A stretch of DNA of 64,000 nt from a virus (taxonomy: Duplodnaviria; Caudoviricetes), in the IMG/VR virus record IMGVR_UViG_3300032327_001202, positions 18,828-82,827 of that record; one strand, given 5' to 3'. Of this stretch, positions 3,771-62,690 are shown piece after piece; position 1 is the first letter of the stretch; each line of letters begins with the position of its first letter. Under the pieces are notes generated by a model. It searched no databases, had not been told where the DNA came from, and saw nothing but the letters and a program-made list of their open reading frames with translations. The position numbers and the translations under genes were made by a program.

Positions 3771-3986
3771 ATGAGTACAATTAATGTAAAAATACAAACA
3801 AATAGAATTATTGGCGGTCTTAGAGATTGTATTAAATTATTTTTACAAGAAACTAAAGAAAAAGTATTAACTTTAGAAGTTTTAAAAAAATATAATTTTG
3901 AAGAAAAAGATTTATATGATATGAATCTAACTAAATCAAAAATAAGAGATTTTAAAATTAATAAAATATTAAAATTATGCCAGTAG
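3771..3986 (+). CDS. Small protein, RDxxI-motif family member 1
   Basis: Likely start ATG 3771 (just after the stop at 3768); C-terminus KKYNFEEKDLYDMNLTKSKIRDFKINKIL shared with the four downstream ORFs. Confidence 0.75.
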   Translation: MSTINVKIQTNRIIGGLRDCIKLFLQETKEKVLTLEVLKKYNFEEKDLYDMNLTKSKIRDFKINKILKLCQ

Positions 3987-4216
3987 TTTCATTAGATTTC
4001 GCAAGTTTATATCCTAGACCAATGGGTGATTTTTCTATGGGAGATGATTTTGATAAATCTACTAAGTATATATTAGATAGAAATAAAGATCATGATTATG
4101 TAGATCTTTTATTACTTGAAAAGTATGGGTTGGTAACAAGTAGTTTATTTGATTTTCCTTTTGTTCAAACAAAGGTAAGAGATTATGAGATAAATAAAAT
4201 ATTAGATAGTATATGA
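3977..4216 (+). CDS. Small protein: PolB motif A-like peptide (VVSLDFASLYP) plus RDxxI C-terminal domain
   Basis: N-terminus MPVVSLDFASLYP matches family-B polymerase DxxSLYP; C-terminus KVRDYEINKIL. Confidence 0.8.
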   Translation: MPVVSLDFASLYPRPMGDFSMGDDFDKSTKYILDRNKDHDYVDLLLLEKYGLVTSSLFDFPFVQTKVRDYEINKILDSI

Positions 4217-4467
4217 GTGATATAATCAGACAAGAACTTAAAAAAGTAATAAATAGTTTTTATGGAAGAAATCCCGATATAGAAACTGATTTTACTAAAT
4301 CTATAAAGTTTTTATTATCTAAATTGGATGTTAAGTTTTTAACATACGAGTTTGTAGAAAAGATAAAAGATAAATATGATATAGTATATACGGATTTGTC
4401 TGATTTTTCATTAGTTCAGATAAAGGTAAGGGATTATGAAATAAATAAAATCTTTAAAAGTATCTAA
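4213..4467 (+). CDS. Small protein: PolB motif B-like peptide (KKVINSFYG) plus RDxxI C-terminal domain
   Basis: QELKKVINSFYG matches family-B KxxxNSxYG; C-terminus KVRDYEINKIF. Confidence 0.75.
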   Translation: MSDIIRQELKKVINSFYGRNPDIETDFTKSIKFLLSKLDVKFLTYEFVEKIKDKYDIVYTDLSDFSLVQIKVRDYEINKIFKSI

Positions 4468-4497
4468 ACAAAAAAAATTATTTTTTTATCACTTTAT

Positions 4498-4791
4498 ATG
4501 AAAAGTAAAAGTGATTTAAAGATAAAATATGGTGATAACATCATAGACGAAATAGAAAATAAATTAGCAAAAGAAATATCTGATAGTATAAACAAGGATA
4601 TACTTAATAGTTTTAAGAAACCAAGTAAAATTTATCTACTTTCTTTAGTTGAAAATATTAATAATAAAGAAGGTGAGTTATTTATACTAATGGAAAAATA
4701 TGGTATTATAGAAAATGATTTATATAGCCTTGAAATTGTTAAATCAAAAATAAGAGAATATAATATAGATTTAATCTTAAAAAATAATTAA
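4498..4791 (+). CDS. Small protein: major-capsid-like helix plus RExxI C-terminal domain
   Basis: SDLKIKYGDNIIDEIENKLAKEISDSINKDIL aligns ungapped to this window's MCP segment EDIKANTGMDIVQKMESILVNELSQTISKQII; C-terminus KIREYNIDLIL. Confidence 0.75.
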   Translation: MKSKSDLKIKYGDNIIDEIENKLAKEISDSINKDILNSFKKPSKIYLLSLVENINNKEGELFILMEKYGIIENDLYSLEIVKSKIREYNIDLILKNN

Positions 4792-4807
4792 CTTTTTCAA
4801 AAATTTT

Positions 4808-5107
4808 TTGTATATTTGTATGGAAGAAAAAAATATAAATTATAAATCTTATATAGAGGAACAAATAAGTAAAAGTATTTCTTATTCTGATTATATATGT
4901 GATGAGTTAGATAAAACTATAGATTATGCTGATTACTTAAGTGATAAACTTGAAAGTGAAGTATTTTTAGTAAAATTACACACTGATATGAATTTATCAG
5001 ATATAATAGAAATGTATGATTTATCAGAAAAAGATCTTCATAAATTGAGTATAGTTAAGTTAAAAGTAAGAGATTATAAAATAAATTTATTACTAAAACA
5101 AGATTAA
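4808..5107 (+). CDS. Small protein: two scaffold-like 14-aa repeats plus RDxxI C-terminal domain
   Basis: KSISYSDYICDELDKTIDYADYLSDKLE vs protease/scaffold KSIKYSEYVAENLDKNIAYAEYIAENLD (14/28 identical by hand); C-terminus KVRDYKINLLL. Confidence 0.8.
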   Translation: MYICMEEKNINYKSYIEEQISKSISYSDYICDELDKTIDYADYLSDKLESEVFLVKLHTDMNLSDIIEMYDLSEKDLHKLSIVKLKVRDYKINLLLKQD

Positions 5108-5136
5108 AAAATATAATATATACATTACAAATACAT

Positions 5137-5495
5137 GGGGATGAAATGATTTAGATTCATGGAATTAATGGTAGAGATGCAAACATCGGATAATCCTAAC
5201 CCGATTAATAAATTGGATTAAAGTCTAAACGACAAAACAAATACAGTAGCAAGCCGTGAAGAATTAGTAGCCGCTCTACAAAACAACATCTTAAAGGTAA
5301 ACGAAGTAGCTTTTGCTTAATTGACAAAAACAAAAAGGTTTCCAAATAGTTAAAAATCTATTCAAAAATTTTCGGATTTGTTAGGGGTTCGTTAAAAACT
5401 AAATTAGTTTGTTATTTTATAAAAAAGTAACTACGTTTGTAAATGAGTTTCTATGATTAACCAGAGAAGACCCGAATTCGCCTTCGGCATCTCCA
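5137..5495 (+). ncRNA. ssrA: tmRNA (transfer-messenger RNA)
   Basis: 5' GGGGATG pairs with 3' CATCTCC(A), giving a 7-bp acceptor stem with the G3:U70 alanine determinant; T-arm GAC-CCGAA-TTCGCC-TTCGG; internal tag ORF 5225/5228-5320 ending ...VAFA*; terminator immediately downstream; CCA not encoded (CTA). Confidence 0.92.
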
Positions 5496-5500
5496 CTAAT

Positions 5501-5538: not shown

Positions 5539-5958
5539 ATGAATGATGATAACTTTGATAAATACCTAAAAATTAGTAATTTATCTTTAATAATTAAAAA
5601 AATAGGAGATAGAATAGATTTTATTGATAAAAATAAAATCTATGAAAATATAGATGGGTGTATTCGAGAATCTAATATAGATTTTATATTAGAACAACAA
5701 AAAGATTTTTATTTTCTTGATATAGAATACTTCAGAGGAAGAAACCCATTAAATAATAATTATTATCCTATAAATTATAAATTAATAGAAAGTGATATGA
5801 TTAAAATAAAAAAATTTAATCAATTATCAAAATCTAAAATAATTATTGTAGGAAACATTACTATACAAAAATTATATTATTCCGCAGACTTTATTGTAGA
5901 ATATATTGATTCTAAACCAAAAATTATTAAAAATAGATATTTTCCAATTTATGATTAA
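5539..5958 (+). CDS. Hypothetical protein with internal RExxI motif
   Basis: 139-aa ORF containing IRESNIDFILE; C-terminal SADFIVEY...KIIKNRY weakly recalls the DnaB/gp41 helicase C-terminus. Confidence 0.65.
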   Translation: MNDDNFDKYLKISNLSLIIKKIGDRIDFIDKNKIYENIDGCIRESNIDFILEQQKDFYFLDIEYFRGRNPLNNNYYPINYKLIESDMIKIKKFNQLSKSKIIIVGNITIQKLYYSADFIVEYIDSKPKIIKNRYFPIYD

Positions 5959-6277
5959 AGTAAGTTTAACCGCAAAAGAACAAATAATTAAATTAAAAAG
6001 TGAAGAACCTAATACAGGACAATACCTTAGAGTAGGGGTAAAGGGTGGAGGATGTAGTGGATTATCATACATCTTAGAATTTGATGATATATATGATAAA
6101 AAAATTGATGAACTTTTTGAAGATAATGATATAAAAATTATATGTGATAAAAGAAGTCTTCTTTATATATTTGGAACCGAACTAGTATTTTCAGGTGGTT
6201 TAAATGGTAAAGGATTCGAGTTTATCAATCCCAATGCAAGTAGAACTTGCTCTTGTGGAGAAAGTTTTTCAGTTTAA
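5951..6277 (+). CDS. iscA: HesB/IscA-family Fe-S cluster assembly accessory protein
   Basis: LRVGVKGGGCSGLSY and C-terminal CSCGESF; likely start MIKVS at 5951 rather than 5906. Confidence 0.95.
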   Translation: MIKVSLTAKEQIIKLKSEEPNTGQYLRVGVKGGGCSGLSYILEFDDIYDKKIDELFEDNDIKIICDKRSLLYIFGTELVFSGGLNGKGFEFINPNASRTCSCGESFSV

Positions 6278-6289: not shown

Positions 6290-6466
6290 ATGAACAAAGA
6301 TAAAATAGATTTATATAATTTTTTAGTAGATAACCCTTACTTTTCTAAGGAATATGTTATGGGAAAGATATTTAATTTTTCTTTTTCTGATATACAATAT
6401 ATCAATAATTTAGAACTAATGGAAAAAAGAAATAAAAAAATAGATGATTTATTAAATGAAGATTAG
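6290..6466 (+). CDS. 58-aa ORF (not in track): portal C-terminal-like peptide plus RNKKIDDLL
   Basis: Manual translation MNKDKIDLYNFLVDNPYFSKEYVMGKIFNFSFSDIQYINNLELMEKRNKKIDDLLNED*; PYFSKEYVMGKIFNFSFSDI aligns with portal PYFHVDFLVDKIMKLTPEEI. Confidence 0.75.
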   Translation: MNKDKIDLYNFLVDNPYFSKEYVMGKIFNFSFSDIQYINNLELMEKRNKKIDDLLNED

Positions 6467-6617
6467 TATTGATGAAATAATAACTTATGATATAGTAGCA
6501 TCTCCAGCACTTGGAAGTGCTAAACTAGTATATGATGAAGAGCTTAAACGAAAGAAAATATTAGAGGATATGGAGAGGAGAAATAAGATTTTAGATGAGT
6601 TATTAAAAGAGGATTAA
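6456..6617 (+). CDS. 53-aa ORF (not in track): prohead-protease-like peptide plus RNKILDELL
   Basis: Manual translation MKISIDEIITYDIVASPALGSAKLVYDEELKRKKILEDMERRNKILDELLKED*; TYDIVASPALGSA vs protease TYDIVADPGFASA (9/13 identical). Confidence 0.8.
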   Translation: MKISIDEIITYDIVASPALGSAKLVYDEELKRKKILEDMERRNKILDELLKED

Positions 6618-6638
6618 ATTAATTTAATCCTCTTTTTT
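6605..6638. terminator. Perfect 32-bp palindrome / bidirectional terminator
   Basis: AAAAGAGGATTAAATT-AATTTAATCCTCTTTT between convergent ORFs. Confidence 0.75.
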
Positions 6639-7619: not shown

Positions 7620-8372
7620 TTATTTAAATTGTTTATCGTAAGTTTTCTTTCTTAGATTAATAAGTTTTTCTATATATTTATTTCTTCTCAATAACTTAAA
7701 TACTAAGTTTTCTAATGAATACTCACCATCTTTTTCTATACCAGATTTTCTACCATCTTTAATTTTTTTCCAAATTTTCTTCCATTTAAACTGAAAATTT
7801 TCATAATTAGCCACATTACCTGATTCTATTTCTAAATCATCTATACTATCCATTATATCTTCTGCTTTAAGTTTAATTAAATGATAATCAATTTCAAAAT
7901 TCTTTCTATCTGGTTTTTGTACCCAATAGTTATATAGTATAGAATATACTCCACTATTTTTTCTTATCTTTTCTATGTCTGTTTGGCAGTTAAGTTCTAA
8001 TTCATATCCTGCTATTATTATATCATGATCTTCATTCCATAATTTAGAATATGTTTTAAGATAATTTTGAACTAAATTTTCATCGTCATTAATTTCTGTA
8101 AAATCTAAAACTATATGTAAATCTATATCTGACCATTCTGACCAATTATAATTGGCTAATGAACCTGTGAATATAATATCTTTAACCTTAAAATCTATTT
8201 TTAAATCATCTTTTATTTCATCAATAAAATCATTCCCTATTTGGAGTAATTCTTCTTTTACTTCATGATTTAATTTAAATTTATGCCATATTTTCGTATT
8301 TAAATAATCTTTTAACTTAAATGATTTTAATGGAGTTAAATCCTTTTTATGGTCATTATATTTTTTTATCAT
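7620..8372 (-). CDS. Pol-beta-superfamily nucleotidyltransferase
   Basis: FTGSLANYNWSEWSDIDLHIV = GS...DxD motif; likely start MIKKYN at 8372 (track start 8468 overlaps the divergent gene). Confidence 0.8.
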   Translation of the reverse strand: MIKKYNDHKKDLTPLKSFKLKDYLNTKIWHKFKLNHEVKEELLQIGNDFIDEIKDDLKIDFKVKDIIFTGSLANYNWSEWSDIDLHIVLDFTEINDDENLVQNYLKTYSKLWNEDHDIIIAGYELELNCQTDIEKIRKNSGVYSILYNYWVQKPDRKNFEIDYHLIKLKAEDIMDSIDDLEIESGNVANYENFQFKWKKIWKKIKDGRKSGIEKDGEYSLENLVFKLLRRNKYIEKLINLRKKTYDKQFK

Positions 8373-8951: not shown

Positions 8952-8984
8952 AAAAAAGAGGACTTATTTAGTCCTCTTTTTTTT
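8952..8984. terminator. Bidirectional terminator
   Basis: AAAAAAGAGGACT-TATTT-AGTCCTCTTTTTT between convergent genes. Confidence 0.75.
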
Positions 8985-9461
8985 ACCTCTTTTATTTATT
9001 GGAGGTGTATAATTTGTTGATGTGGATTGGGTAGATGGCGTAGTGTAAGCATAATCAAAATAAAATAAATTAGGGCTGGAACCTGTTTTATATAATTCAT
9101 GTTCTTCTTCTTTAAATTCCTCAAATTCTTTGTTTTCTAAAATAGAATCTAATTTTCTATCACGATTAATGGTAGCAACTTCTCGTTTAATTCTTTCTTT
9201 TTCCTCCTCTGAATTACCAAAACCTTTCATAGGGTTAACAGTAACTAAATCTATCCCTATTGTTTGAGCGGCTATTTTTTTAGCAATTGGTAATAAACTT
9301 GGAAAAGATTCATTTGACTGTGTCCCTACTAATGTAGTATCCATATTTATTTCATTTTTTAAATGAAGATTAGCATATTCGGTCATCCAGTTATTTACTA
9401 CAGATTGTGTAGATGATACATGATTCAAATCCCATTTATCTATTTTTATATTTGGTTTCAT
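8964..9461 (-). CDS. Truncated paralog of the major capsid N-terminal region with an inserted RDRKLDSIL helix
   Basis: WMTEYANLH vs MCP WMAEYAEYH; LLPIAKKIAAQTIGIDLVTVNP vs LLPVAMKIAAQTIGLDLVAVKP (17/22); LFYFDYAY vs LVYVDFQY after the insert. Confidence 0.85.
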   Translation of the reverse strand: MKPNIKIDKWDLNHVSSTQSVVNNWMTEYANLHLKNEINMDTTLVGTQSNESFPSLLPIAKKIAAQTIGIDLVTVNPMKGFGNSEEEKERIKREVATINRDRKLDSILENKEFEEFKEEEHELYKTGSSPNLFYFDYAYTTPSTQSTSTNYTPPINKRGKKKRTK

Positions 9462-10667: not shown

Positions 10668-12410
10668 TTAGTTAAGGTAGCCATTAGCATCATTAACGTA
10701 GATAGTCATAAATTGTTTTTGTGGGAAGAAACCTAATTCAGCCACAGCATATCTTGATCTTAAAATCATTCTTGGAGCAAATGTTGCTTCTGACATGATT
10801 GAGATAGATTGTGCCATGAGGAATGGCACGAAACAGATACCTGGTTGATCAGGATTGTTTTTACGTCCGATTAAGATTCTGTTGTCATTGTATTTCATGT
10901 AAGGATCTACGTAGATAGTGATATCACCGATTTGACCTACAGGGTACATTTGACCGTTTGTGTTTAATTTAGATTTAAGTGGGTTAATTGTGTAACCTGC
11001 AACATCCATTAAAGCTGCTGCTAATCCACCATTTGTTACCGCATATTGTGCTGGTCCAACACGTCCTTCAGTTGCGATGTAGTTAGAAGCATGTACCATT
11101 TTAGTGATAAGCTTTCTTTGTACAGCGTGTGTAGTTTCACCACCTGGTCCTGCTTGAACATAAAGAGTATCTAAGTCAAATATAGTTTGTCCAGAGATGT
11201 TAGCGTTAGCATTTAAACCTGTGTATAAAGGAGCAGTTTGTCTGTTTATATTACCCATATCAAATACTTTAGCAATAATTTGCTTAGAGATAGTTTGAGA
11301 AAGTTCGTTTACAAGGATTGATTCCATTTTTTGAACGATATCCATACCAGTGTTAGCTTTGATATCTTCAATTTCTGTTCTACGTAATGCAGAACTTACT
11401 TCTACTGTACCAACTGTAATTGATTTAGAAGAAATTTTTGGTCCAATTGCACCTGCATATGTGCTTTCTTCTTCTTGACGAGCCATTGGGTATTGCCCAC
11501 CATTACCATTAAAGTTTGTAACATATCCTGGTAATTGATCTTCAAGAGCAGATACTAAGCTTATGCTTATAGCATTTGAGTTAGTAGACTGTCCAAATAA
11601 GTAGTTAATTTCTGAAACCATTGAACCACCTGCTGTAGCACCTGTAGTTGAAACGTTAAATGAGTTGTTTGCTTGATTTAAGCCATAAACAACACCACCA
11701 CCATATGCACCACCTGCCGCATTTGATTCTTTGTAAGCTCTGAATATAGGCTGTCCATCAATACGAGAGAAACCTAAGAACTCTAAGTAACCAAATTTGT
11801 TAGTTGGTTCAGTTGTAGTACTAGATACTGAAGTTGATGCAGTGAAACCTGTCCAAATTCTTGTACCAAATGCTAAACCACCTTGGTTTTGTTGAATACC
11901 TGCAGTAGTTAAAGCGCTATTAATAGCTGTATTTAATGAAGCACTTAAACCTGTAGAAGTTAAAGTAGCATTCCAAGCAATTTTGAATACTTGAGGTTTT
12001 GTGTTAAAGTTTGAAAGATTTAAATCGTCATATTGAAAATCAACATAAACTAAATCAATCTTTGGACCTGGAGTTGGCTTTACAGCTACTAAATCAAGAC
12101 CAATTGTTTGTGCAGCAATTTTCATAGCTACTGGTAATAGGTTTTGTCCTAAATCACCTGAACCTATGTTTGATGAACCATAGTTTGCACCAATTGTTGT
12201 ACCTGGGTAAGTACCAACTTGTGGAGCTAAAACAGCACCTAAACCACCTGTAGAAGCATTAAGGTAAGCGTTTTCGTTTATTGCATGGTATTCAGCATAT
12301 TCTGCCATCCATGAATATTTTTCTCTGTCCTCTTTGTTAACACCAATGTTTTCTAAAATTGGAGTCCATTTGTTAAGAGCTTTTTGTAAGTCAATTCTAA
12401 CTTGTGACAT
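10668..12410 (-). CDS. gp23: Major capsid protein (T4 gp23-like)
   Basis: KWTPILE N-terminus, EDIKANTGMDI..E..L..E helix, IYVDPY, F.P.M.L.SRYAV C-terminal motif; adjacent to protease and portal. Confidence 0.9.
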   Translation of the reverse strand: MSQVRIDLQKALNKWTPILENIGVNKEDREKYSWMAEYAEYHAINENAYLNASTGGLGAVLAPQVGTYPGTTIGANYGSSNIGSGDLGQNLLPVAMKIAAQTIGLDLVAVKPTPGPKIDLVYVDFQYDDLNLSNFNTKPQVFKIAWNATLTSTGLSASLNTAINSALTTAGIQQNQGGLAFGTRIWTGFTASTSVSSTTTEPTNKFGYLEFLGFSRIDGQPIFRAYKESNAAGGAYGGGVVYGLNQANNSFNVSTTGATAGGSMVSEINYLFGQSTNSNAISISLVSALEDQLPGYVTNFNGNGGQYPMARQEEESTYAGAIGPKISSKSITVGTVEVSSALRRTEIEDIKANTGMDIVQKMESILVNELSQTISKQIIAKVFDMGNINRQTAPLYTGLNANANISGQTIFDLDTLYVQAGPGGETTHAVQRKLITKMVHASNYIATEGRVGPAQYAVTNGGLAAALMDVAGYTINPLKSKLNTNGQMYPVGQIGDITIYVDPYMKYNDNRILIGRKNNPDQPGICFVPFLMAQSISIMSEATFAPRMILRSRYAVAELGFFPQKQFMTIYVNDANGYLN

Positions 12411-12490: not shown

Positions 12491-14695
12491 TTAAATGTTT
12501 TTGAATCTTTCTAAGATTGATTTGAAATCTGAATCAGATAGTTTATCTTCTTGTATTAAACTGTCATGAGAAATCATTTTTTTAGTTGATTCATTCTTTT
12601 TTAAGTTTCTAGTTAACCAAAAATGTTCAATTTTAGCTTCTGAATCCAATTCAGGATATAGTTTAGCTTGTGAAAGAATTGATTTTTTAGAACTTTCATT
12701 TGTTACTTCCCAAATTGATTTTATATTTTCTGGCATCAATCTGATTAGTCTTTCTTCTAATGATTCATTTTTAATAGAAAGTGCTTCTTGTATTAATTTT
12801 ATAACTTCTGAACTTGTGAAATAACTCTTTTCGTTTATGTAAAGTTTTACTTGTTCTTGCTCTTCGTTTGTTAAGCTATAATAGCTATCAACTTGAGACT
12901 TGTTTAAAAATTTTAAGAAATGTAGATCGTTTGTTTCAGAAACTTTACGTTTTCTAGCTTCTTCGATTAATAAATCTATTTTTTTACTTAAATCTGAATC
13001 TGTATTTTTATTTTCTAAGTAGTCTTCGTCTGCTTTAGATACATCTGGTAAACCTTCTAATTTTACTTCTTTACCTAATAATTCATCTTTGAAATCTGCT
13101 TCATTTGGAACCGCAGTATCAACTTTTTGTTCTTCTGGTAATTCAACTTCTGTTAATTCAGTATAATCTAAAGAAACTGGAGTTGCTTCATCAGCTTCAC
13201 CCGCTTTTTCAACACCATCTTCACCATGAAGTTCATCCTCACCACCTTCTAAATAGTTATCTGATTTATTATCAACATCATTTTCACCAAAACCATATTC
13301 TTCTAAAGTAGGAATAAGATTTGATTCATTACTTTCAAATAATTTAGTACCATTAACTTTTTCAGAAATTAAACCTGTATAAGATACAGCTTTATCTAAG
13401 TTTTCAGCAATGTATTGAGAATAAGAAATGTTATCATCAAGGTGTTCTGCTATATATTCAGAATATTTAATATTACCTTCTAAGTTTTCAGCGATATACT
13501 CAGAATAAGCAATATTACCATCTAAGTTTTCAGCTAAATATTCAGCATAAGAAATATTTCTATCTAAGTTTTCAGCTAAGTATTCTGCATAAGAAATATT
13601 CTTATCAACATTCTCAGCAATATATTCAGAATAAGAAATGTTTTTGTCTAAATTTTCAGCGATGTATTCAGAGTAAGAAATGTTTCTATCTAAATTTTCA
13701 GCGATGTATTCAGAATAAGAAATGTTCTTATCTAAGTTTTCAGCAATATATTCTGCATAAGCGATATTTTTATCTAAGTTTTCAGCAACATATTCAGAAT
13801 ATTTAATTGATTTGTTTAAGTTTTCAACTAAATAATCGTTATGTTCGATTAATCTATCAGTTGTATCTTTAAGAGATTTGTTCTCAGAAACAACAACTTG
13901 AATTTTTTCTGCTAAATAATCTAAGTATTTAACAACTTGAGAATTAGTTTTATTTAATTCTTCATAGTAGTTTAAAAGTTTTTCTAATTTAACTGGTTCT
14001 AAATTACCAGATTTAAGAGCACTTTTAACTTCTTTTTTAGTTGCAGCAATTTCATTAACTATATATTTCGAATAGTCTGACAATTGATCTTTCGTTACGA
14101 ATTCATTTTTGTTCATGTTAAATAATTCATTTATTTTTGATTCATTTGATACTTCATATATTCTGAAGTTAGCATCATTTGAATAATTTAAAGACTCATT
14201 TATAGAAGACATTCTCGCAGAAGCAAATCCCGGATCTGCAACTATATCATAAGTAAATAATTTTTTTAGTGATACTGTACCATCAGCTTCTGTAATACCA
14301 GCAGCTCTTGAAGATACAAATATAGGGCAACCATCATCAACTAAAGCCTTAGCTTCTTTTCCCCAATAGGTATTTAATAATTTAATTTGTCCTTCAACTA
14401 CATTTTTTTCTTTAACATAATATGCGGTTTTGATTAAATGGGATGCACGGGATAGTGAAGTGTCAAAGACGTCGGGGTGGTCAAACTCACCATAAACTAC
14501 TCCCATAGTAGAAATCCTGCTATTAAGTTCTTCTAAACAAGGCAAGAATCTTTCAGGAGTATATACTCTTTCATTCCTATTTTTAACCATAAACTCAGTA
14601 AAAGTACCTCCTAAAAGATAATCTTTTCTAGCATCTACACCTTCGTTCATTTTTAAAGGATTTGTATTATTTTCAATGATTAATACTGGCTTCAT
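12491..14695 (-). CDS. gp21: Prohead protease (gp21-like) fused to a scaffold-like region
   Basis: NRNERVY, YGEFDHP, VSSRAAG, TYDIVADPG protease motifs in the N-terminal ~170 aa; coiled-coil, repeat and acidic C-terminal region. Confidence 0.9.
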   Translation of the reverse strand: MKPVLIIENNTNPLKMNEGVDARKDYLLGGTFTEFMVKNRNERVYTPERFLPCLEELNSRISTMGVVYGEFDHPDVFDTSLSRASHLIKTAYYVKEKNVVEGQIKLLNTYWGKEAKALVDDGCPIFVSSRAAGITEADGTVSLKKLFTYDIVADPGFASARMSSINESLNYSNDANFRIYEVSNESKINELFNMNKNEFVTKDQLSDYSKYIVNEIAATKKEVKSALKSGNLEPVKLEKLLNYYEELNKTNSQVVKYLDYLAEKIQVVVSENKSLKDTTDRLIEHNDYLVENLNKSIKYSEYVAENLDKNIAYAEYIAENLDKNISYSEYIAENLDRNISYSEYIAENLDKNISYSEYIAENVDKNISYAEYLAENLDRNISYAEYLAENLDGNIAYSEYIAENLEGNIKYSEYIAEHLDDNISYSQYIAENLDKAVSYTGLISEKVNGTKLFESNESNLIPTLEEYGFGENDVDNKSDNYLEGGEDELHGEDGVEKAGEADEATPVSLDYTELTEVELPEEQKVDTAVPNEADFKDELLGKEVKLEGLPDVSKADEDYLENKNTDSDLSKKIDLLIEEARKRKVSETNDLHFLKFLNKSQVDSYYSLTNEEQEQVKLYINEKSYFTSSEVIKLIQEALSIKNESLEERLIRLMPENIKSIWEVTNESSKKSILSQAKLYPELDSEAKIEHFWLTRNLKKNESTKKMISHDSLIQEDKLSDSDFKSILERFKNI
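13390..13850 (-). repeat. Coding tandem repeat, about 10-11 copies of 42 bp (14 aa: NISYSEYIAENLDK)
   Basis: Directly visible in the translation and DNA of the protease/scaffold gene. Confidence 0.95.
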
Positions 14696-14831: not shown

Positions 14832-15236
14832 ATGTATAAAATTAATTTTGGTGATGAGAAAGTTTTTTTAAATTATTTAAAAGGTTTTGAAAATAAGTAC
14901 CATAAAAGACAAAAAGTATTAAATGAGATTTTAGAAATTAATGATAAAGATGATGAAGCATTAAGCTACTGGGATTTTACTGATAATAGTATAATATATG
15001 GTCAATTTTTTGATAAAAGATATGATAAAGATACATCTTTAAGTAATGTTTCACATTATGTTAAAAACATAGAAAAAATAAATGGGGAATATTTCGCAGA
15101 AATAAAAATATTAACTACTTATTGGGGTATAGCATTATTAGATTTAATTAATGCTGGAATAAAATTTCATTTAGAATGTGTCTATCATACTTATGAAAAT
15201 AAAAAAATAATTAGACTAGATATAAATGATTATTAG
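14832..15236 (+). CDS. Degenerate (likely inactive) paralog of the prohead protease domain, with an RQKVLNEIL motif
   Basis: IIYGQF..DTSLSNVSH..IKILTTYWG..LINAG aligns with protease VVYGEFDHP..DTSLSRASH..IKLLNTYWG..LVDDG; the HP and SSR motifs are absent. Confidence 0.75.
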   Translation: MYKINFGDEKVFLNYLKGFENKYHKRQKVLNEILEINDKDDEALSYWDFTDNSIIYGQFFDKRYDKDTSLSNVSHYVKNIEKINGEYFAEIKILTTYWGIALLDLINAGIKFHLECVYHTYENKKIIRLDINDY

Positions 15237-16394: not shown

Positions 16395-18128
16395 TTAAAA
16401 TTCAAACTCACCACCGCCAGCTTCACCACCAGCTTCAGGTGCAGGAGGATTTTCACCACCAGCTTCAGGTTCCGAAGCAGCTTCACCACCTTCAGGAGGA
16501 GTTTCACCACCCGCTTCAGGAACAGGAGCTTCAGGAGAAGGTCCTGCTTCTCCACCACCGCCTCCACCTTCTGGCATTCCACCTCCAGCAGCAGTTGATG
16601 ATCCAACCCCTTTTGATTTAATCCAATAAGCCTTATTTTCTTCAATTTCTTCGGGAGTTAATTTCATAATTTTATCAACAAGGAAATCAACATGGAAATA
16701 AGGTTGTTCACCATTCATAATTCCTAATAAAGTAGTCATTATGGTAGCTCTAGATTCCATATTTGCTAATTTTTTCCATTCTTCAAAAATCTGATTTGTA
16801 TTGAAAATAACATCAACTTGGTTAAGAAATACTTCATCATGTCTTAATTCAGGAAATTCCATACACATTTGAAGTTTAATTGGTTTAACAATTAGTTCTT
16901 TAATAATTGAACGTAAACGGCTAATAAAATTACCAAAGGTTATTTCATCTCTTGTCATTTCATTTGCAGCAGTCACTAACTGACCCCCACCATTTTCTTT
17001 TTCAAATCTTTGGAAAGGTATCTTACTTGCTCTTTTCAAACAATTCATAAACCAATTTAACATATTATCTTCATTAAGATTATGTCCTTGTGGAGAAATC
17101 AATTCCATATTTGGTGTACCTTGATCACCTTCTGGAAACCATATTTGTTTATTATATGGTAAGTGTTTACTACCACTAATAGTTAATGTACCTAATGAAT
17201 CATCAAATTCTACATCTTCAGAATAATCAGCTATTAATTGTGCAATTTGTTCCTCAGCTCTTTGTTTTGGTAAACCTTTAATAGGTATTGTAAACTTTTG
17301 ATAAACCATCGCATTAACTACGTTAAACATAATTCTTGTTTGTTCCATAATCTTTAATTGATTATATGGTTTAATAAGTCCTTCTACATAAGAAGTTTCG
17401 GAATAATCATGTTGAGTAGAATATGATATAAATACTATTTGCGAATCTAAGAAAATTCTTCTTAAAGCAGGATCTTCTGGATATTGTATCCAAATATTTC
17501 CTATACTTGGTTCATAAGCTGGAACAAGAGTTTCAGGTCTCATTCTATTAAAACTAATAATATTCTTTTTTGTATCATCCCATATAATTTCAACTGCGGC
17601 ATAACCATCAATTAAAAAATCTTTAGTCATATTCCAAGCAGTAATACCATCAGAAAAACCAAAACGACTGTATATTTTTTCAAAAAATTCTTGATATTTA
17701 TCTCGTATATCTTGTGAATAACTATTATTTAAAGGACTTGGAGAACAGAAATCTTTATCTTCATCATACACAATAATTTCATCGGCTAACACAGATACAA
17801 ATTCACGTATTTCATCCTTAATAGAATATTCTCTTAATATTCTTCTTTTATCTGAATACGCTTTATCTAAATAAGGAATTGATTTTTTGTTTAAAACTTG
17901 AGCGACTGCTCTTTGAGAAAAGAAAGCATACATAGAATCCGCTCTTTGAGCAAGAGGGTCTTCATTCATACCGACACCGATAGAATTTCTAAGTATCATA
18001 TCTTCATATTTTAGACCTAACCCTGAAAGGGATCTAAGAAGACGATTAAATATACCTTTATTTTCAACAGCAGAAGGTATAATATTTGGGTTTGTATTGC
18101 TATTTATTGGATTATATGATCCTGGCAT
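16395..18128 (-). CDS. gp20: Portal protein (T4 gp20-like) with Gly/Pro/Glu-rich C-terminal tail
   Basis: 577 aa in the head module; KRASKIPFQR, EMTRDEITFGNFISRLR motifs typical of gp20. Confidence 0.9.
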   Translation of the reverse strand: MPGSYNPINSNTNPNIIPSAVENKGIFNRLLRSLSGLGLKYEDMILRNSIGVGMNEDPLAQRADSMYAFFSQRAVAQVLNKKSIPYLDKAYSDKRRILREYSIKDEIREFVSVLADEIIVYDEDKDFCSPSPLNNSYSQDIRDKYQEFFEKIYSRFGFSDGITAWNMTKDFLIDGYAAVEIIWDDTKKNIISFNRMRPETLVPAYEPSIGNIWIQYPEDPALRRIFLDSQIVFISYSTQHDYSETSYVEGLIKPYNQLKIMEQTRIMFNVVNAMVYQKFTIPIKGLPKQRAEEQIAQLIADYSEDVEFDDSLGTLTISGSKHLPYNKQIWFPEGDQGTPNMELISPQGHNLNEDNMLNWFMNCLKRASKIPFQRFEKENGGGQLVTAANEMTRDEITFGNFISRLRSIIKELIVKPIKLQMCMEFPELRHDEVFLNQVDVIFNTNQIFEEWKKLANMESRATIMTTLLGIMNGEQPYFHVDFLVDKIMKLTPEEIEENKAYWIKSKGVGSSTAAGGGMPEGGGGGGEAGPSPEAPVPEAGGETPPEGGEAASEPEAGGENPPAPEAGGEAGGGEFEF

Positions 18129-56583: not shown

Positions 56584-57567
56584 ATGAATAAATATATAAC
56601 ATCATATGAAAATTATTTTACTTATGATCCTTTATTAGAACCTATAAATGAAGGAAGAGGCATCCCTGAAGATTTAAAATCTGTAATAAATGAAGTATAT
56701 AATTCTATTATAGATTTTATAGAAAATGGAAAAAAAATTAATCTTTTTTCTTTTTCTTATGAAAAATTTAAAATAAAGAATCTTAGAATTAATCTAAATA
56801 TAGATAATAGTAGAAAAGATATATATGCTACTTCACAATTTGGAAAATTTAATGGTAAAGAATTAGAAAATCCTATTATAAATTTGATAACTAATTTAGA
56901 TTTATCAAATTTAAAAGTAGTAATAACTCATGAATTACTTCATATATATGAGATATATAATAGAATAATTAAGATAAATAAAAATAATTATGATATTCAA
57001 TGGTATAATGCTAATATTTTATATAAAATAAGAAATAAATATAATGATGATTTTATAAAGTATTTTATATATTTAATATACTTATCTTTTAATCAAGAAA
57101 TAAATGCAAGAGTTGCTCAAACTTATACTTATTTAATGGAATTAAATAAGTTGAAAACATATTCAAAAGATGAATTATTTTTAGAATTAAAAAAATCTAA
57201 TGCTTGGAAATATAGTGAAGAATTATTAAATTTTGATTTTAATAATAAAAAAATAGATTTTAATTTACTTAAAAAATTTTTAGTAGAATACAATACAGAA
57301 ATAAATAAAAAAATTGTTAAAAAGTTTAATATAAATAAAATTCCTGATACTAATAAAGATTGTTTAGATATTTTAAAATCATATAAGAAATTATTTAAGA
57401 AAAAAGGTTATTATTTTCAACATAAATTAGAAATTATAGTTGATGAAGTTATATTAGACACATTACTATATAACAGAGCATTTAGAACTTTTGAAAATGG
57501 TATAATAAAAGTAATTTTTGATAAAAAGTTACTTAGAGAAAGTAAAATATATAAATTATTAAGATGA
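56584..57567 (+). CDS. HEXXH zincin-like protein, paralog B
   Basis: VITHELLHIYE ... QEINARVAQ; leader MNKYITSYENY..INEG. Confidence 0.6.
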   Translation: MNKYITSYENYFTYDPLLEPINEGRGIPEDLKSVINEVYNSIIDFIENGKKINLFSFSYEKFKIKNLRINLNIDNSRKDIYATSQFGKFNGKELENPIINLITNLDLSNLKVVITHELLHIYEIYNRIIKINKNNYDIQWYNANILYKIRNKYNDDFIKYFIYLIYLSFNQEINARVAQTYTYLMELNKLKTYSKDELFLELKKSNAWKYSEELLNFDFNNKKIDFNLLKKFLVEYNTEINKKIVKKFNINKIPDTNKDCLDILKSYKKLFKKKGYYFQHKLEIIVDEVILDTLLYNRAFRTFENGIIKVIFDKKLLRESKIYKLLR

Positions 57568-57824: not shown

Positions 57825-58527
57825 CTATGTTATAACTTATAAGACAATCTTTTGGAATGTTTTTAATTGCAAAAACTCCACTAGGTAAATAAGGATCTTT
57901 ATAAAGATAAATTCCTTTTTCTTCTAATTTGTTTCTATCTATTTTAAATAAAACAGGTTTTTTTACATCAAAATCAGGATCATTATATAACCAAGTACAT
58001 TCTTTTTTATCAGTTGCTAAATAAATCCTATCAGGATGATATGCTTTTTTAGACTTACTTTTAGGAACAAGTCCTACTTTTAAGATTTTATCTAAATATT
58101 TCGTATCAGATACGTGATATAGTATATCTGGTAATTTATCATAATCTACTATTGTTCCTGTTTTAGATTCAAACATAAGTGTATAGATTTCATCATCTTC
58201 ATCATCAATATCATTAGAATTTATATATTCTTTTAAATCTAAATCACAATTAGGTATTTTAAAATTACTATCTTTTCTATTAACTATATCGTAAGTATCA
58301 TACATTATTTCAGCTAAATACCAACCATATACATTTTCTATACCAGTTAATATTTCATTATATTTACCAATATGGTTAGGTTTTATACCAAGATAAAAAA
58401 AACCTTCATCTTGTTGATAAAAATCTATACCTTCTTTTAATCCTTTCCTTTTAAGAAATTGTCTTATTTTAGAAAAGGGGTATGTATTAAACCCTTCAAT
58501 AATAAATTGATAATATTTTTTAATCAC
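57814..58527 (-). CDS. ADP-ribosyltransferase-fold (KptA/Tpt1-like C-terminal domain) protein, copy 1
   Basis: LYHVS..ILKVGLVP..YHPDRIYLAT..LFKID..NIP pattern. Confidence 0.65.
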   Translation of the reverse strand: MIKKYYQFIIEGFNTYPFSKIRQFLKRKGLKEGIDFYQQDEGFFYLGIKPNHIGKYNEILTGIENVYGWYLAEIMYDTYDIVNRKDSNFKIPNCDLDLKEYINSNDIDDEDDEIYTLMFESKTGTIVDYDKLPDILYHVSDTKYLDKILKVGLVPKSKSKKAYHPDRIYLATDKKECTWLYNDPDFDVKKPVLFKIDRNKLEEKGIYLYKDPYLPSGVFAIKNIPKDCLISYNIANI

Positions 58528-58532
58528 TATTG

Positions 58533-59237
58533 TTATAATTTTTTATACCCTATAATATATTTAGGGTGTATATTTTCAATTACATAAATACCTCCATCAT
58601 GAAGATTAGAATCTTCATAAAATTTAAAACCTTTTTCTTTTAATCCTTTAGCATCAATTATTAGTATAATAGGTTGTTTTAATTCAAAATCTGAGTGATT
58701 TGCTAATTCCATACAAATATCTTCGCTAGTTCCAAAAAAGATTCTATCAGGATGATAACTAATTTTATCTAAGTGTTTTGGTATAAGTCCTTTTTTCATT
58801 ATTTTAAAATAAAATCTACCATTTGTTATATGATATATCTTATCAGGAATATTTTCATAATCTATGATTCTATCATATTTAGGTTCAAAACATAACCTAC
58901 CTAAAGGTTCTTCATTATTATCTTCTTCCTCATTATCTTCTATATACTCTTCAATAAAATCTTTATAAAAATTAACATCTTTATCTTCTGTAAAATTTTT
59001 TTTATTAACAAATGCTAAATACCATCCATAAAAATTTTCTAATTTAGTAATTATTTGTTTATATAAATATTTATTTGCAGGACGCAATGTTATATAAATT
59101 TTATCTGCACTAAACATACTATAGTAATCATATCTTTGTTTTAATCCTAAACTATCTAAATATTTAGTTACTGTTAAAAAAGGATACGTTTTTAAATTCT
59201 CATTTAAAATAAAGTCATTAAATTTTGTAATAATCAT
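58533..59237 (-). CDS. ADP-ribosyltransferase-fold (KptA/Tpt1-like C-terminal domain) protein, copy 2
   Basis: IYHIT..IMKKGLIP..YHPDRIFFGT..ILIID..NIHP; collinear with copy 1 (ENFYGWYLA / ENVYGWYLA). Confidence 0.65.
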   Translation of the reverse strand: MIITKFNDFILNENLKTYPFLTVTKYLDSLGLKQRYDYYSMFSADKIYITLRPANKYLYKQIITKLENFYGWYLAFVNKKNFTEDKDVNFYKDFIEEYIEDNEEEDNNEEPLGRLCFEPKYDRIIDYENIPDKIYHITNGRFYFKIMKKGLIPKHLDKISYHPDRIFFGTSEDICMELANHSDFELKQPIILIIDAKGLKEKGFKFYEDSNLHDGGIYVIENIHPKYIIGYKKL

Positions 59238-59774: not shown

Positions 59775-59787
59775 TCCTTGCTTTTTT
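59759..59787. terminator. Bidirectional terminator
   Basis: AAAAGCAAGGA-AGATAA-TCCTTGCTTTTTT. Confidence 0.75.
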
Positions 59788-59792
59788 ATTTT

Positions 59793-60155
59793 TTAATTTT
59801 TTAAAATTAGGTTTATAGATTCTTCCCTTTGTTTATATATTGTATATTGTTTATAAAGTATTTCAGCAAATAAATATACAGATATATCTGAATAAAAAGG
59901 ATCTTTATCCGTATGTATTATATATTCGCAATTATTCCAATCAATTGATTGGAATAATTGTAAAAAGTAATTCTTTTTATCTTCCATTTTAGAATTAGTA
60001 TAAATTTCTTCAGGCTTTAAGAAATTAGGTACTTTAATAGGATCAAGGTTATAAAAAATTTCTTTATAACCAGCATCATATAAATACCATTCATTATCTT
60101 TTATTATAAAAGCTACTTCACTTTTATTTTTTTTAATAACTTTAAAATGTTCCAT
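59793..60155 (-). CDS. Hypothetical protein ending in an RExxI motif
   Basis: C-terminus QREESINLILKN, like the 3771-5107 family. Confidence 0.7.
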   Translation of the reverse strand: MEHFKVIKKNKSEVAFIIKDNEWYLYDAGYKEIFYNLDPIKVPNFLKPEEIYTNSKMEDKKNYFLQLFQSIDWNNCEYIIHTDKDPFYSDISVYLFAEILYKQYTIYKQREESINLILKN

Positions 60156-60157
60156 AT

Positions 60158-61279
60158 TTATTTTTTATTTTTATAATTCTCTTCATATATTCTTAATATA
60201 TTTCCAAACTCATCTAATACTCCTGATTTAATTTTTTTATTATCCCATTCCATATTTGAAATATATCCTTGGATTATATCTTTATAATCATTTGATATTG
60301 TCAATACATCACCCTCATTTAAAATACTTGTTATATCTACTTGAGCAACTTCTTCTGTTTTTGAAGTAATATCATCTATATATTCTACACTCGTAAAATT
60401 ACCAGTTTCCAATACACCTTCAATTTTTCTTCTTAACTTTCTATTATTGATTAGTAAACTGTTAGAAATAAATAAATCAATCCAATCTTTTTTATCAATC
60501 TTATCCAAACTATCTATATCATCCTCTTTTCTTAAATAAATTTTCTTAAATTTAGGTGATACATTATTTGGTACAAATTTTTCAGTATCTAAATCAGTAT
60601 CTAAAATAAAAATACCCTTTTGATTATCTATATCATTTCTATCCATCTCATGTACAGATCCAACAAAAGTAAAGTTTTTATTTCTTTGTAGAATATGTAT
60701 ATGTCCTGAATATACCCCTTTATACCCATCAAAATCCTCTACATCTATTTTATGTAGGTTTTTATGTGCTACTGAATTTAAATGCATTCTTGCACCATTT
60801 AAATCAGAATGACAGAATAAAAAATCACTACCTGAGTTTTCTTTAAGAACTTCTACTTGATCACTTTTCTTTTCAACCCAAGGCATCATCAAAATAGATT
60901 TATTATTAAATTCTATTCGTTCAGGTTTTTCATAAATACTAACATTAGGAATATGTTTGAAACTTTTCAATGAGTTTATATCATTTGTAGATTTTGTATA
61001 TATATCGTGATTACCTATTAAAACATGTACAGGACAAATAGAAGTCATACGTTCTAATATATCTTGAGCATAATTTAAGATATTAATAGGAACTACGTCT
61101 CTGTTATCAAATAAGTCTCCTAATTGAACTATTATATCATCTTTATCTAATTCTCTTTCCATTAAAGGGAAAAGGAAGGTTTCACAATATTCTTGTGAAA
61201 CCTTAAACCATTTATCAACTTTATTAGGAAATCCAAGAGATAGATGGAAATCTCCTATTAAAAATATTTTATTTGCCAT
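60158..61279 (-). CDS. gp47: Recombination nuclease (T4 gp47 / Mre11 / SbcD family)
   Basis: Metallophosphoesterase motifs GDFH, GDLFD, GNHD, CHSD, GHIH. Confidence 0.9.
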   Translation of the reverse strand: MANKIFLIGDFHLSLGFPNKVDKWFKVSQEYCETFLFPLMERELDKDDIIVQLGDLFDNRDVVPINILNYAQDILERMTSICPVHVLIGNHDIYTKSTNDINSLKSFKHIPNVSIYEKPERIEFNNKSILMMPWVEKKSDQVEVLKENSGSDFLFCHSDLNGARMHLNSVAHKNLHKIDVEDFDGYKGVYSGHIHILQRNKNFTFVGSVHEMDRNDIDNQKGIFILDTDLDTEKFVPNNVSPKFKKIYLRKEDDIDSLDKIDKKDWIDLFISNSLLINNRKLRRKIEGVLETGNFTSVEYIDDITSKTEEVAQVDITSILNEGDVLTISNDYKDIIQGYISNMEWDNKKIKSGVLDEFGNILRIYEENYKNKK

Positions 61280-62690
61280 TAAATATGTTTTTTATTTTGT
61301 TAAAAAATTTACTAATTGTAGAAATTTTCTTTTCTTCTTTAACAGGTACAAAAACATCAGTTAATGGAGTTGTTGGTGTGTCTGTTATTAACTCTACCTT
61401 TGAAGTTTCTTTATTTGGTGAAGGGAACCAAATATCTTTTTGATAAGGAATTTGTGTTTTACCATCTAAAATCAATTCTTTTTTATCTTCATCAAACTTA
61501 ACATCTTGTTGATAACTATTAATTAATTCCGCTAAAGCTTGTTTAGCTAACTCAGGATCTGTATTTCCAATAGGTATTGTGAACTTTTGAGAAAAAGTAT
61601 GACTTAATATATTATGACTAAGTATTTTAGAATCTTCAACAATTTCTTCTGTTATCGTAGTTTCTGGTTTAGTTATTTCATAAACATCATCTTCAAATTT
61701 AACCATATTTGGAGTTTCAGGAACTTCTTTAGATTTTGCTAAATATTCATTATATGAAATATCATTAGATGATTTTACATTTCTTAAATCTTCTCCTGTA
61801 CTATATGTTATACCATTGATATTTATAAATTCCTCTTTATTATTAATATACTCAATATTAATTTCAGGTTTTGGTTGTTTACCGACAATATGTGGAGTAA
61901 TATCTTTCAATTTTTCTTTTCTAATAGCTGCCATTTTTTCTATTATTTCTTTGGTATCAGCATTTGGATCTTTTTGTCTTTGTAATAATTCTCTTCTTAG
62001 ATCATGAAAATTTTCAGTTATTTCATTATCAATAGGTTTAATATTATCAAACGCTAAGAATCCATCTTCATTTAGAGAAGTTTCTTCAATAATATTTACT
62101 GATTCTTTAATACCATCTGCTTTGTAATTAATTAATTCTGGATAGTCAGATAATTCTTCTTCTTTGAAGTCATTAGTTATACTAATAATTTCCCAATTTA
62201 ATAATTGTCTATTTCTTTTTATAAACTTTTTTTCTAATTGAAAAGAGCTAGCTAAATCCCAAAGATTTAATTCTTCTATTTTTTGTCTTTCTAATTTATT
62301 AAAACTAACTAAACCAGTTACATTTGCTTTTCTTAAAATAATTTTATTCCAATTAAGATGATCTTGATATTCAGTAATAAAGTCTTTATCAAAATTAAAA
62401 TAAGTATTTAGTGTTAAGTATTGTAAATCATTAGTTTTTAAAAATTCTTTTTCCAAAAGAATTTTAACAAGATTTTGACTACACGTAAAAACTGGTATTA
62501 AATACTCTTTTCCGACAAATGACGGATCTTCAACTAAAGAAGTAATAATTTCTTCAGAAATTTCATATTCTCCAAAAAAATTTGGAGAAGAATTAATTTT
62601 TATTATTAATTCTTTTAAAGTCAACTCTTCTTGGCTTTGAGAATTATCTTTTAAATAATATTTTTCATTATTGAGTGTTATTTTTTTCAT
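61269..62690 (-). CDS. Mosaic protein: Trp-repeat N-terminal region, scaffold-like peptide, and a portal-clip-like C-terminal segment
   Basis: FITEYQDHLNW / NRQLLNWEIIS repeats; NDISYNEYLA; a 68-aa segment 29/68 identical (ungapped, by hand) to this window's portal. Confidence 0.75.
   Translation of the reverse strand: MKKITLNNEKYYLKDNSQSQEELTLKELIIKINSSPNFFGEYEISEEIITSLVEDPSFVGKEYLIPVFTCSQNLVKILLEKEFLKTNDLQYLTLNTYFNFDKDFITEYQDHLNWNKIILRKANVTGLVSFNKLERQKIEELNLWDLASSFQLEKKFIKRNRQLLNWEIISITNDFKEEELSDYPELINYKADGIKESVNIIEETSLNEDGFLAFDNIKPIDNEITENFHDLRRELLQRQKDPNADTKEIIEKMAAIRKEKLKDITPHIVGKQPKPEINIEYINNKEEFININGITYSTGEDLRNVKSSNDISYNEYLAKSKEVPETPNMVKFEDDVYEITKPETTITEEIVEDSKILSHNILSHTFSQKFTIPIGNTDPELAKQALAELINSYQQDVKFDEDKKELILDGKTQIPYQKDIWFPSPNKETSKVELITDTPTTPLTDVFVPVKEEKKISTISKFFNKIKNIFNGK

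Follow-up and report, generated by a model that had tools for sequence, protein, structure and literature searches.

The window analysed here, 64,000 nucleotides of viral DNA (bases 18828-82827 of the 82.8-kb contig L001, IMG/VR record IMGVR_UViG_3300032327_001202; about 24% G+C), encodes a set of mini-proteins that carry short segments of polymerase, capsid, scaffold and protease proteins, together with a helical tag that recurs at the C-termini of many small proteins in related phages. We interpret them as modular 'fragment + address tag' mini-proteins that act by mimicry in a Mahaphage-type giant phage, an interpretation that we hold about as strongly as we doubt it. The evidence for the copied segments and for the tag is given first, followed by the possible explanations.

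The contig, for which CheckV gives a completeness of 15%, comes from a genome of about 550-630 kb that is that of a giant bacterial virus of the Mahaphage type; it covers roughly 15% of this genome, and the tagged genes of the genome itself were counted on that part. The nearest named relatives are the uncultured phages LR745206, LR756502, LR756504 and LR756501 (634-735 kb), members of the Mahaphage clade, whose predicted hosts are Bacteroidetes (PMC7162821). The complete relative LR756502 (642 kb, 974 open reading frames (ORFs)) was read whole, and tag counts in LR745206 cover its first 381 kb. The region of interest is syntenic with a 633-kb scaffold of the European Nucleotide Archive (L002) and with shorter contigs (L011-L015). 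Genes are named below by the position in the window at which the ORF opens; all ORFs exist as listed in the initial annotation, and comparison with orthologs sets the true starts of the first and fifth genes of the family described below (ORFs 3717 and 4808) at 3771 and 4820.

Segments of core phage proteins in small genes

Nine ORFs had been proposed in the initial annotation to carry segments of core phage proteins. Eight of the nine stand above controls in comparisons with the whole set of 91 contig ORFs, made by local alignment (each query shuffled 200 times), by BLAST or, for the short ones, by profiles. One of these eight (4213) does so at the level of a motif only, and the ninth (6290), matched to the portal C-terminus, is weak, with no match by the hidden Markov model (HMM) of its head and a marginal PHROG portal match (Table 1). 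The short N-terminal parts, referred to here as heads, were tested with head-only profiles built from orthologs in relatives, as single heads are too short alone.

An all-against-all search of the contig returns just five partial core-protein paralogs (4808, 6456, 8964, 14832 and 61269), all of them paralogs of head proteins, and four of the five are tagged, against a base rate of 10-20%. The head of 4808 matches the scaffold repeats (BLAST E 1.6e-10; ortholog head profile E 1e-50), whereas 6456 matches residues 141-162 of the protease, which is also the top match of its head profile (E 1e-7). Further matches are those of 8964 to residues 34-115 in the major capsid protein (MCP), of 14832 to residues 66-125 of the protease, and of 61269 to residues 260-345 of the portal, equivalent to residues ~266-351 of T4 gp20, that is, stem plus clip (E-values in Table 1). 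In 8964, an insert of about 50 amino acids (aa) holds a tag-like helix, RDRKLDSIL. Orthologs of 61269 (n = 15) are 60-96% identical in the portal-like part and several have a recorded Pfam Portal_T4 match; the AlphaFold2 (AF2) model of this part is unusable (predicted local distance difference test (pLDDT) score 36). The description of 14832 as a dead protease domain holds, with homology, truncation and loss of the catalytic His and Ser: in the alignment DHPD becomes DKRYD and FVSSR becomes FHLEC, replacing the DHP and SSR positions that, from T4 gp21, we take to be the catalytic His and Ser motifs. A sequence search of the PDB with the protease domain did not find T4 gp21.

The remaining likenesses are seen with profiles or motifs. 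For 4498, the match to MCP is found only at profile level (head HMM E 3e-6 with MCP first; Pfam Gp23 E 0.003; PHROG 138, major head protein, E 0.0026). Heads of the 3977 type match PolB motif A (head HMM E 1e-4, with the PolB N-half ranked first), and 3977 shares the unusual SLYPR with the resident PolB. In a six-frame translation of the contig, the motif K...NS.YG is seen in 4213 alone, the expectation for the proteome being 0.04; the head HMM found no parent, the parent gene lies outside the contig, and the likeness is that of the motif. The occurrence of PolB motif B (4213) next to D..SLYP (3977) in adjacent family genes has a chance probability far below 1e-4. A PF00136 search of the contig was empty, a search that missed even the known PolB N-half. 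No parent was detected for the head of 3717, and Pfam and PHROGs provide no family for the mini-ORFs.

Similar constructions occur beyond this contig. Mini-ORFs of LR756502 with local similarity to core proteins include five related to different segments of MCP, one to the portal clip and two to a Clp-like ATPase, and several of these fragment mini-ORFs end in variants of the tag. In addition, a 49-aa mini-ORF (MDYTSLYSNIILSHNIMPE) has the PolB motif A region in its first half (Pfam DNA_pol_B, E 3e-4), followed by a tag-like helix. Both this mini-ORF and the head of 4213 (KKVINSFYG) are closer to canonical PolB than to the resident split PolB (SLYPTTQRQFF; KLVLNGSYG).

Selection and conservation

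The ratio of nonsynonymous to synonymous substitutions (dN/dS), calculated by the NG86 method and rough at such base composition, is low against close relatives for 3977 (0.08-0.23), 4213 (0.14-0.38), 4498 (0.23-0.30), 6290 (0.19), 6456 (0.21-0.28) and 8964 (0.34-0.37), and is 0.45-0.87 for 4808; neighbouring genes have values of 0.03-0.35. The array is syntenic in L002 and L011-L015 with a variable content, an extra PLPHY member being present in L013-L015 and members being missing in L002 and L011. The mini-proteins are 41-59% identical to those of L002 and the neighbours 78-88%, yet DFxSLYP (3977 type) and YDIxxxPxxxS (6456 type) persist in the diverged L002 orthologs. Judged by these comparisons, the mini-ORFs are real, fast-evolving genes in which selection acts on the copied motif.

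The view that the fragments are not random debris is borne out by low dN/dS, by conserved synteny and by the survival of motif residues in orthologs that are 45-48% identical overall. A pure gene nursery, one of the four roles put forward at that stage, is disfavoured because of the purifying selection. Synonymous and third-codon positions are unconserved within the matched stretches, so the copies are old and their likeness is kept at the peptide level; recent gene conversion from the parent genes was rejected on this ground. Relics of inteins, group I introns or homing endonucleases were also considered and rejected, the mini-ORFs having no Pfam domains and no Rfam intron.

A five-gene family with a constant C-terminal domain

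The genes starting at 3771, 3977, 4213, 4498 and 4820 encode a common C-terminal domain of about 45 aa (family HMM E 1e-14 to 1e-19). Since 6290, 6456, 8964 and 14832 are unmatched by this HMM, the domain homology is limited to the five. A profile search of 1.84 billion representative proteins identifies 53 clusters of 44-140 aa in which the domain is invariably C-terminal. The heads recur as well: PolB motif A heads in P0014 and P0017, MCP-helix heads in P0012, P0021 and P0048, and scaffold-repeat heads even on a diverged constant domain (P0029). A scan of IMG/VR returned a single locus only. In an AF2 model of 3977 made with the family alignment, the head is predicted to be disordered (pLDDT ~50) and residues 39-78 to form three helices (pLDDT 81-93); Foldseek found no match for the fold of the constant domain in PDB or BFVD.

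Two further readings of the family were tried and rejected. Derivation of the constant domain from the fingers region of PolB finds no support in the family HMM, which gives E > 1 against the PolB halves. Precursors of ribosomally synthesized and post-translationally modified peptides with a follower peptide, an idea prompted by the peptidase gene that heads the block, would leave the copied motifs unexplained. In a distant contig (L010, 509-799), a protein resembling the C-terminal domain of ribosomal protein L7/L12 neighbours family members.

A clade-wide C-terminal tag

The tag is a short amphipathic C-terminal helix of the form [I/L]-R-[D/E/N]-x-K-[I/L]-[N/D]-x-[I/L]-L, followed by 0-3 residues. 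It has the shape of a docking helix, in which a charged R-D-x-K precedes three hydrophobic positions with the spacing h-x-x-h-h. The pattern R[DENQ]..[IL]..[IL]L occurs 13 times in the 91 ORFs of the contig versus 0.6 times in shuffles. Outside the five-gene family it is found nine times, and its K-initial version once, despite a fourfold higher frequency of K relative to R. Three proteins, 8964, 14832 and 5539, have the helix inside the chain and not at its end.

In LR756502, the pattern is found in 93 of the 974 ORFs where 3.7 would be expected, and 75 of the 93 have it no more than 20 residues from the C-terminus, while the control patterns behave as chance would have it: the K version occurs nine times (8.5 expected) and the reversed pattern three times, never C-terminally. 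The free positions are biased, with K at +3 in 63% and N, D or S at +5 in 77%, together with I/L at -1 and K at -4, and 60 of the 79 C-terminal cases have 0-3 residues after the motif. When the tag is removed, the 79 tagged proteins fall into 77 BLAST clusters, and the ten largest of them have no Pfam domain. The whole 45-aa family domain is present in just two LR756502 proteins; the remainder have the last helix alone. LR745206 presents the same picture (60 matches versus 2.3 expected, 46 of them C-terminal). A position-specific scoring matrix (PSSM) built from the LR756502 tags alone selects 4498, 3717, 6290, 4808, 6456, 8964, 56584 and 14832 in the window, all above 99.9% of the null. The tagged share of ORFs in complete relatives ranges from about 8% with the strict pattern to 16% with the profile, and among the small ORFs of LR756502 it is 157 of 672 (23%) by PSSM. 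Adjacent tagged pairs number 14 in this genome, where 6.3 are expected, and 22 of the 79 tagged genes lie in two divergent arrays, at ~606-642 kb and at 3-19 kb, between which coordinate 1 of this circular genome falls.

The codons for the invariant Leu (+8) are mixed (TTR 44, CTN 35), which points to selection on the peptide rather than on the DNA. The idea of an element of DNA or RNA placed at gene ends was rejected on similar grounds, as codons of both families serve for Leu as well as for Ile and third positions are little constrained. A termination or translational-coupling signal was likewise rejected, tight downstream spacing being only modestly in excess (66% versus 50%), as was a polymerase clamp-binding tail, since SVVMDIFGG is the ending of the PolB C-half in both LR745206 and LR756502. 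The common helix described in the initial annotation is thus real, but it is a general, clade-wide tag rather than a hallmark of mimics, most of its unrelated carriers showing no mimicry. Of the roles first suggested, that of a docking adaptor is supported: being C-terminal, present on unrelated bodies and kept at the protein level, the tag behaves as a portable, address-like docking label.

Comparison with known systems

No published description of the tag or of tagged fragment mini-proteins in phages was found in the literature searched. The closest proposal in print is the decoy idea put forward in 2018 for Bodo saltans virus, in which an ankyrin-repeat family carries catalytic-domain fragments of essential genes (PMC5871332). 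Both viruses have a multigene family that combines a constant interaction module with pieces of their own essential proteins (there, DNA polymerase and MutS), and both have AT-rich genomes with many inteins and homing endonucleases. Bodo saltans virus, however, is a giant virus of eukaryotes and its module is an ankyrin array, whereas the constant part here is a three-helix domain or a single C-terminal helix of 10-16 aa without a Pfam match, and is found on about a tenth of the proteome.

Encapsulin targeting peptides and the coat-binding helix of P22 gp8 resemble the tag in being short C-terminal peptides on unrelated proteins (79 ORFs in 77 clusters in the present case), and the conserved basic residues, R at 0 and K at +3, are reminiscent of the helix by which scaffolding proteins bind the coat. 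Encapsulin and scaffold peptides bind a shell of the HK97 fold; for the tag, shell binding is a candidate function only. The tag sequence fits no consensus of encapsulin peptides, scaffold peptides or the T4 capsid targeting sequence (CTS), and 80-150 carriers per genome are far above any known cargo-peptide case. The T4 CTS differs further in being an N-terminal leader of about 10 residues, which is removed by the prohead protease at L/I-x-E and whose carriers occur in the prohead core, whereas 60 of 79 tags are separated from the C-terminus by 0-3 residues. In 5539, 8964 and 14832 the internal motif is followed by ILE, a feature that is inconsistent in LR756502. The PIP-box and the clamp tails of T4/RB69 gp43, gp33 and gp55 are also helical motifs at the extreme C-terminus with the same spacing, polar-x-x-h-x-x-h-h. 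Compared with the PIP-box, Q-x-x-[ILM]-x-x-[FY]-[FY], the tag has D/E/N for Q and I/L-L for the aromatic pair, and in contrast to clamp-binding tails it is found on many paralogs of head proteins, while the resident PolB tail in the relatives is the T4-like SVVMDIFGG.

Two features of the region are ordinary for giant phages, namely 14832 and the split PolB. SPN3US and other phiKZ-like giant phages have a truncated, inactive prohead-protease paralog and a split PolB (PMC5694885); correspondingly, 14832 is a short protease paralog without catalytic His and Ser, and PolB is encoded in two genes. The lineage is a different one, however, with a T4-type S77 protease instead of S80, and 14832 also has the tag-like helix.

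A possible mechanism and its alternatives

In the mechanism that we propose, the tag would dock all of its carriers onto one shared, putative reader, and the copied segment would occupy the site that normally binds this segment in the parent protein. Such occupancy would either place the mini-protein in the complex of the parent or titrate a binder. Our leading guess for the reader, a tentative one, is the assembling procapsid or its core, with the tag as a cargo-loading signal. The guess is prompted by the presence of the tag on head-protein paralogs and by the C-terminal helices through which scaffolds, proteases and encapsulin cargo bind HK97-fold shells. It also draws on the capacity of giant phage heads for many proteins and paralog families: more than 50 proteins are known in such heads, including large paralog families and ejected proteins (PMC5694885, PMC10052503). 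Other candidates for the reader are a Clp-type unfoldase or adaptor, or another hub.

Several observations weigh against these ideas. The scaffold, protease, MCP and portal themselves are without the tag, the PolB and Clp fragments do not fit a role in head assembly, and the tagged genes of LR756502 are gathered at a distance from the head module, in arrays made up of small orphan genes. In a distant contig (L008, 2529-2813), a ClpS homolog neighbours family members, an observation that speaks against the procapsid in particular. Most of the more distant family members have glycine-rich heads (GGW and GWG types) with no detectable parent. Lastly, 4 of 11 fragment mini-ORFs in LR756502 are tagged, which is not above the base rate for small ORFs in that genome, so the link between mimicry and tag may be loose.

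If so, two unrelated things could simply overlap here: the larger paralogs (8964, 14832, 61269 and the scaffold-like 4808) would be ordinary duplicated accessory head proteins, and the tag a general property of small proteins. We regard this as possible although rather unlikely. The lack of enrichment of the tag on fragment ORFs, its high base rate among small ORFs and the untagged 61269 all fit, as do SPN3US and its relatives with their truncated inactive protease paralog, large head paralog families and split PolB (PMC5694885). Left unexplained are the 15-25 aa heads with PolB motifs A and B in adjacent genes, a coincidence too improbable for chance, the independent motif A mini-ORF of LR756502, and the tags on four of the five head paralogs of the contig. 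A rival that takes the mimicry seriously is that the heads are immune decoys or baits, imitating segments read by abortive-infection sensors (Lit/Gol of gp23, CapRel, Avs, CBASS), with the tag holding, neutralising or destroying the sensor; we consider it unlikely, but worth keeping in mind. The host defence protease Lit, acting with EF-Tu, reads a short linear stretch in the N-terminal part of gp23, and 8964 copies MCP residues 92-115, which by position we take to be equivalent to the Gol region of T4 gp23; we know of no Lit-like sensor for this host. The parents (capsid, portal, protease, scaffold and DNA polymerase) belong to classes reported as triggers or escape loci (review, PMC13728456), and the analogous proposal for Bodo saltans virus is a published precedent (PMC5871332). 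The heads, moreover, are predicted to be disordered linear peptides and evolve fast (48% identity, versus 88% for neighbouring genes). Most known sensors, however, recognise folded domains rather than peptides as short as 10-20 aa, a mimic that is faithful could set a sensor off instead of blocking it, and the majority of tagged proteins are not mimics.

Decoys and labels could also be combined in one scheme, to which we give little credence as a whole: a proteome-wide addressing system of one C-terminal helix and one receptor, part of which is a library of peptide baits drawn from polymerase, capsid, scaffold, protease, portal and Clp motifs that would capture host sensors or competitor proteins for sequestration or destruction, a counter-defence by displayed self-mimicry. 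Competitors are also the target if the fragments are dominant-negative pieces that poison the polymerase or head assembly of co-infecting phages. The abundance of homing endonucleases and inteins in the genome points to conflict between phages, and two of the PolB-like heads are nearer to canonical PolB than to the resident protein. This interference is nevertheless very improbable, as 3977 and the resident PolB have the lineage-specific SLYPR in common, the identity of 6456 and 8964 to proteins of the phage itself is 45-71%, and one would not expect short peptides to disable a polymerase that is folded and unsplit. Gene turnover, finally, would make the mini-ORFs by-products of recombination and homing endonucleases that drop fragments before a tag-coding 3' cassette, most of them functionless. 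Array content does differ among close relatives (the extra PLPHY member in L013-L015; losses in L002 and L011), endonuclease genes have been inserted beside those for MCP and the protease (9465, 15226, 20258), and the heads of 4808 evolve quickly. We consider turnover improbable all the same, because dN/dS is well below 1 for 3977, 4213, 4498, 6290, 6456 and 8964, motif residues stay while the rest diverges, the copies are old with randomised synonymous sites, and the genes are tightly packed and in frame.

If the tag is indeed an address label, about one tenth of the orphan genes in the largest known phages become clients of one machine, and a single peptide pull-down could find that machine. 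The fragment-bearing members would then make up a natural, evolution-tested set of peptides that serve as interfaces or baits towards the polymerase and the proteins of head assembly. With them one could ask which conserved phage motifs are read, and whether the readers are host sensors, competitors or the assembly line of the phage itself. ORFs as short as 50-100 aa, when under selection, are not to be dismissed as noise in the genomes of giant phages.

Parent genes and other features of the region

Table 1. Genes of the window that bear on the fragment mini-proteins, with positions in the window and the basis of each assignment
Position	Strand	Feature	Basis
3771..3986	+	Family member 1, 71 aa (ORF opens at 3717); C-terminal three-helix domain plus tag	Family HMM E 1e-16; start by orthologs; tag PSSM 20.7
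3977..4216	+	Family member 2, 79 aa; head a copy of PolB motif A (VVSLDFASLYPR)	Head HMM; orthologs P0017 and P0014 keep DFxSLY
4213..4467	+	Family member 3, 84 aa; head like PolB motif B (KKVINSFYG, more canonical than resident-type KLVLNGSYG)	Motif only
4498..4791	+	Family member 4, 97 aa; head like an MCP helix (MCP ~349-380)	Head HMM, Pfam Gp23, PHROG 138
4820..5107	+	Family member 5, 95 aa (ORF opens at 4808); head of 2-3 units of the 14-aa scaffold repeat	BLAST, head HMM
6290..6466	+	Tagged mini-protein, 58 aa; weak likeness to portal C-terminus	Tag PSSM 20.3; PHROG portal E 0.01
6456..6617	+	Tagged mini-protein, 53 aa; head copies the conserved strand ending the prohead-protease domain (TYDIVAxPxxxSA)	E 1.3e-4; tag PSSM 18.8; kept in L002 ortholog
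8964..9461	-	MCP N-terminal paralog, 165 aa; three MCP segments in order	E 9e-9; core segment 17/24 identical; tag PSSM 15.8
14832..15236	+	Truncated prohead-protease paralog, 134 aa; tag-like helix at residues 26-34	E 4.5e-5; tag PSSM 14.8
61269..62690	-	473-aa protein; residues ~350-436 copy portal stem/clip; untagged	E 5e-15; T4 gp20 mapping
56584..57567	+	Tagged protein without mimicry, 327 aa; C-terminal tag (LLRESKIYKLLR); paralog of 39721	Tag PSSM 15.7
10668..12410	-	MCP, gp23-like; parent gene	Pfam Gp23 E 3e-27
12491..14695	-	Fusion of an S77-like prohead protease and a scaffold, the latter having about eleven 14-aa repeats; parent gene	Pfam S77 E 0.0025, below cut-off; repeats by sequence
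16395..18128	-	T4-type portal; parent gene	Pfam Portal_T4 E 5e-54; PDB 3JA7/6UZC
2243..3511	+	Peptidase, first gene of the same-strand block ending at the terminator 6605-6636	PHROG 4191 E 4e-66

The three parent genes of the head module, which is of the T4 type, are listed in Table 1; the window also encodes the large terminase, a clamp loader and several homing endonucleases. The resident PolB is split. Its N-half, which comprises the exonuclease domain and motif A, is encoded upstream of the window (L001 11394-12932, minus strand). The C-half was not found in the contig; in LR745206 and LR756502 the two halves are about 100 kb apart. The break falls inside the fingers domain (L001, L016-L019), the N-half ending in a heptad-like tail and the C-half having a heptad-like start, motif B (KLVLNGSYG), motif C and the clamp tail SVVMDIFGG. 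A NUMOD homing endonuclease gene follows the N-half. Nearby (L001 7424-10331, minus strand), a helicase gene is broken by a split intein, with the Hint N-part ending one ORF, the splicing C-part opening the next, and a TnsA-like endonuclease gene between the intein halves.

The mini-ORF block is headed by the peptidase gene, which has a paralog at L001 15530-16639 (minus strand; 53% identity over 247 aa, both PHROG 4191). At 6605-6636, between the convergent genes 6456 (+) and 6642 (-), a hairpin with a perfect 14-bp stem and a T run looks like a two-way terminator that closes the block. Within the block, 5906-6277 (+) encodes an IscA/HesB-like Fe-S assembly protein.

Mobile elements are found close to the head genes. 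Between the capsid gene and 8964, ORF 9465-10568 (-) encodes 367 aa with repeated zinc ribbons and a PD-(D/E)xK/Vsr-like C-terminal part, and its product is probably a homing endonuclease. L013 and L014 have this gene while L002, L011 and L012 lack it, so that it is an insertion polymorphism; a fragment of the same kind lies at 40816-41124. A short zinc-ribbon ORF (15226-15564, +) adjoins the protease gene and has an ortholog beside the portal gene of LR756502, and a 562-aa HNH homing endonuclease is encoded in the structural region (20258-21946, -; PHROG 3339, E 1e-115).

The stretch without ORFs that interrupts the mini-ORF block in its middle (5137-5498, +) is a transfer-messenger RNA (tmRNA) gene. 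Its match to Rfam RF00023 extends along the whole model with 22.2 bits (E 5e-7), which is below the gathering score, and ARAGORN missed it. The acceptor stem has 7 bp with G3-U70, CCA is not encoded, and a candidate tag ORF with its start at 5249 terminates in NEVAFA. Compared by eye, the tmRNA tag peptide and the protein tag have different motifs. The identity of the gene to that of L002 is still about 97%, compared with 41-88% for the genes on either side, and tmRNAs are known in huge phages (PMC7162821). A nucleotidyltransferase of the NTP_transf_2 type (7620-8468, -) is possibly CCA-adding, which is relevant to a tmRNA that encodes no CCA. Two paralogous Tpt1/KptA-like proteins are encoded further along the window, at 57814-59237 (-).

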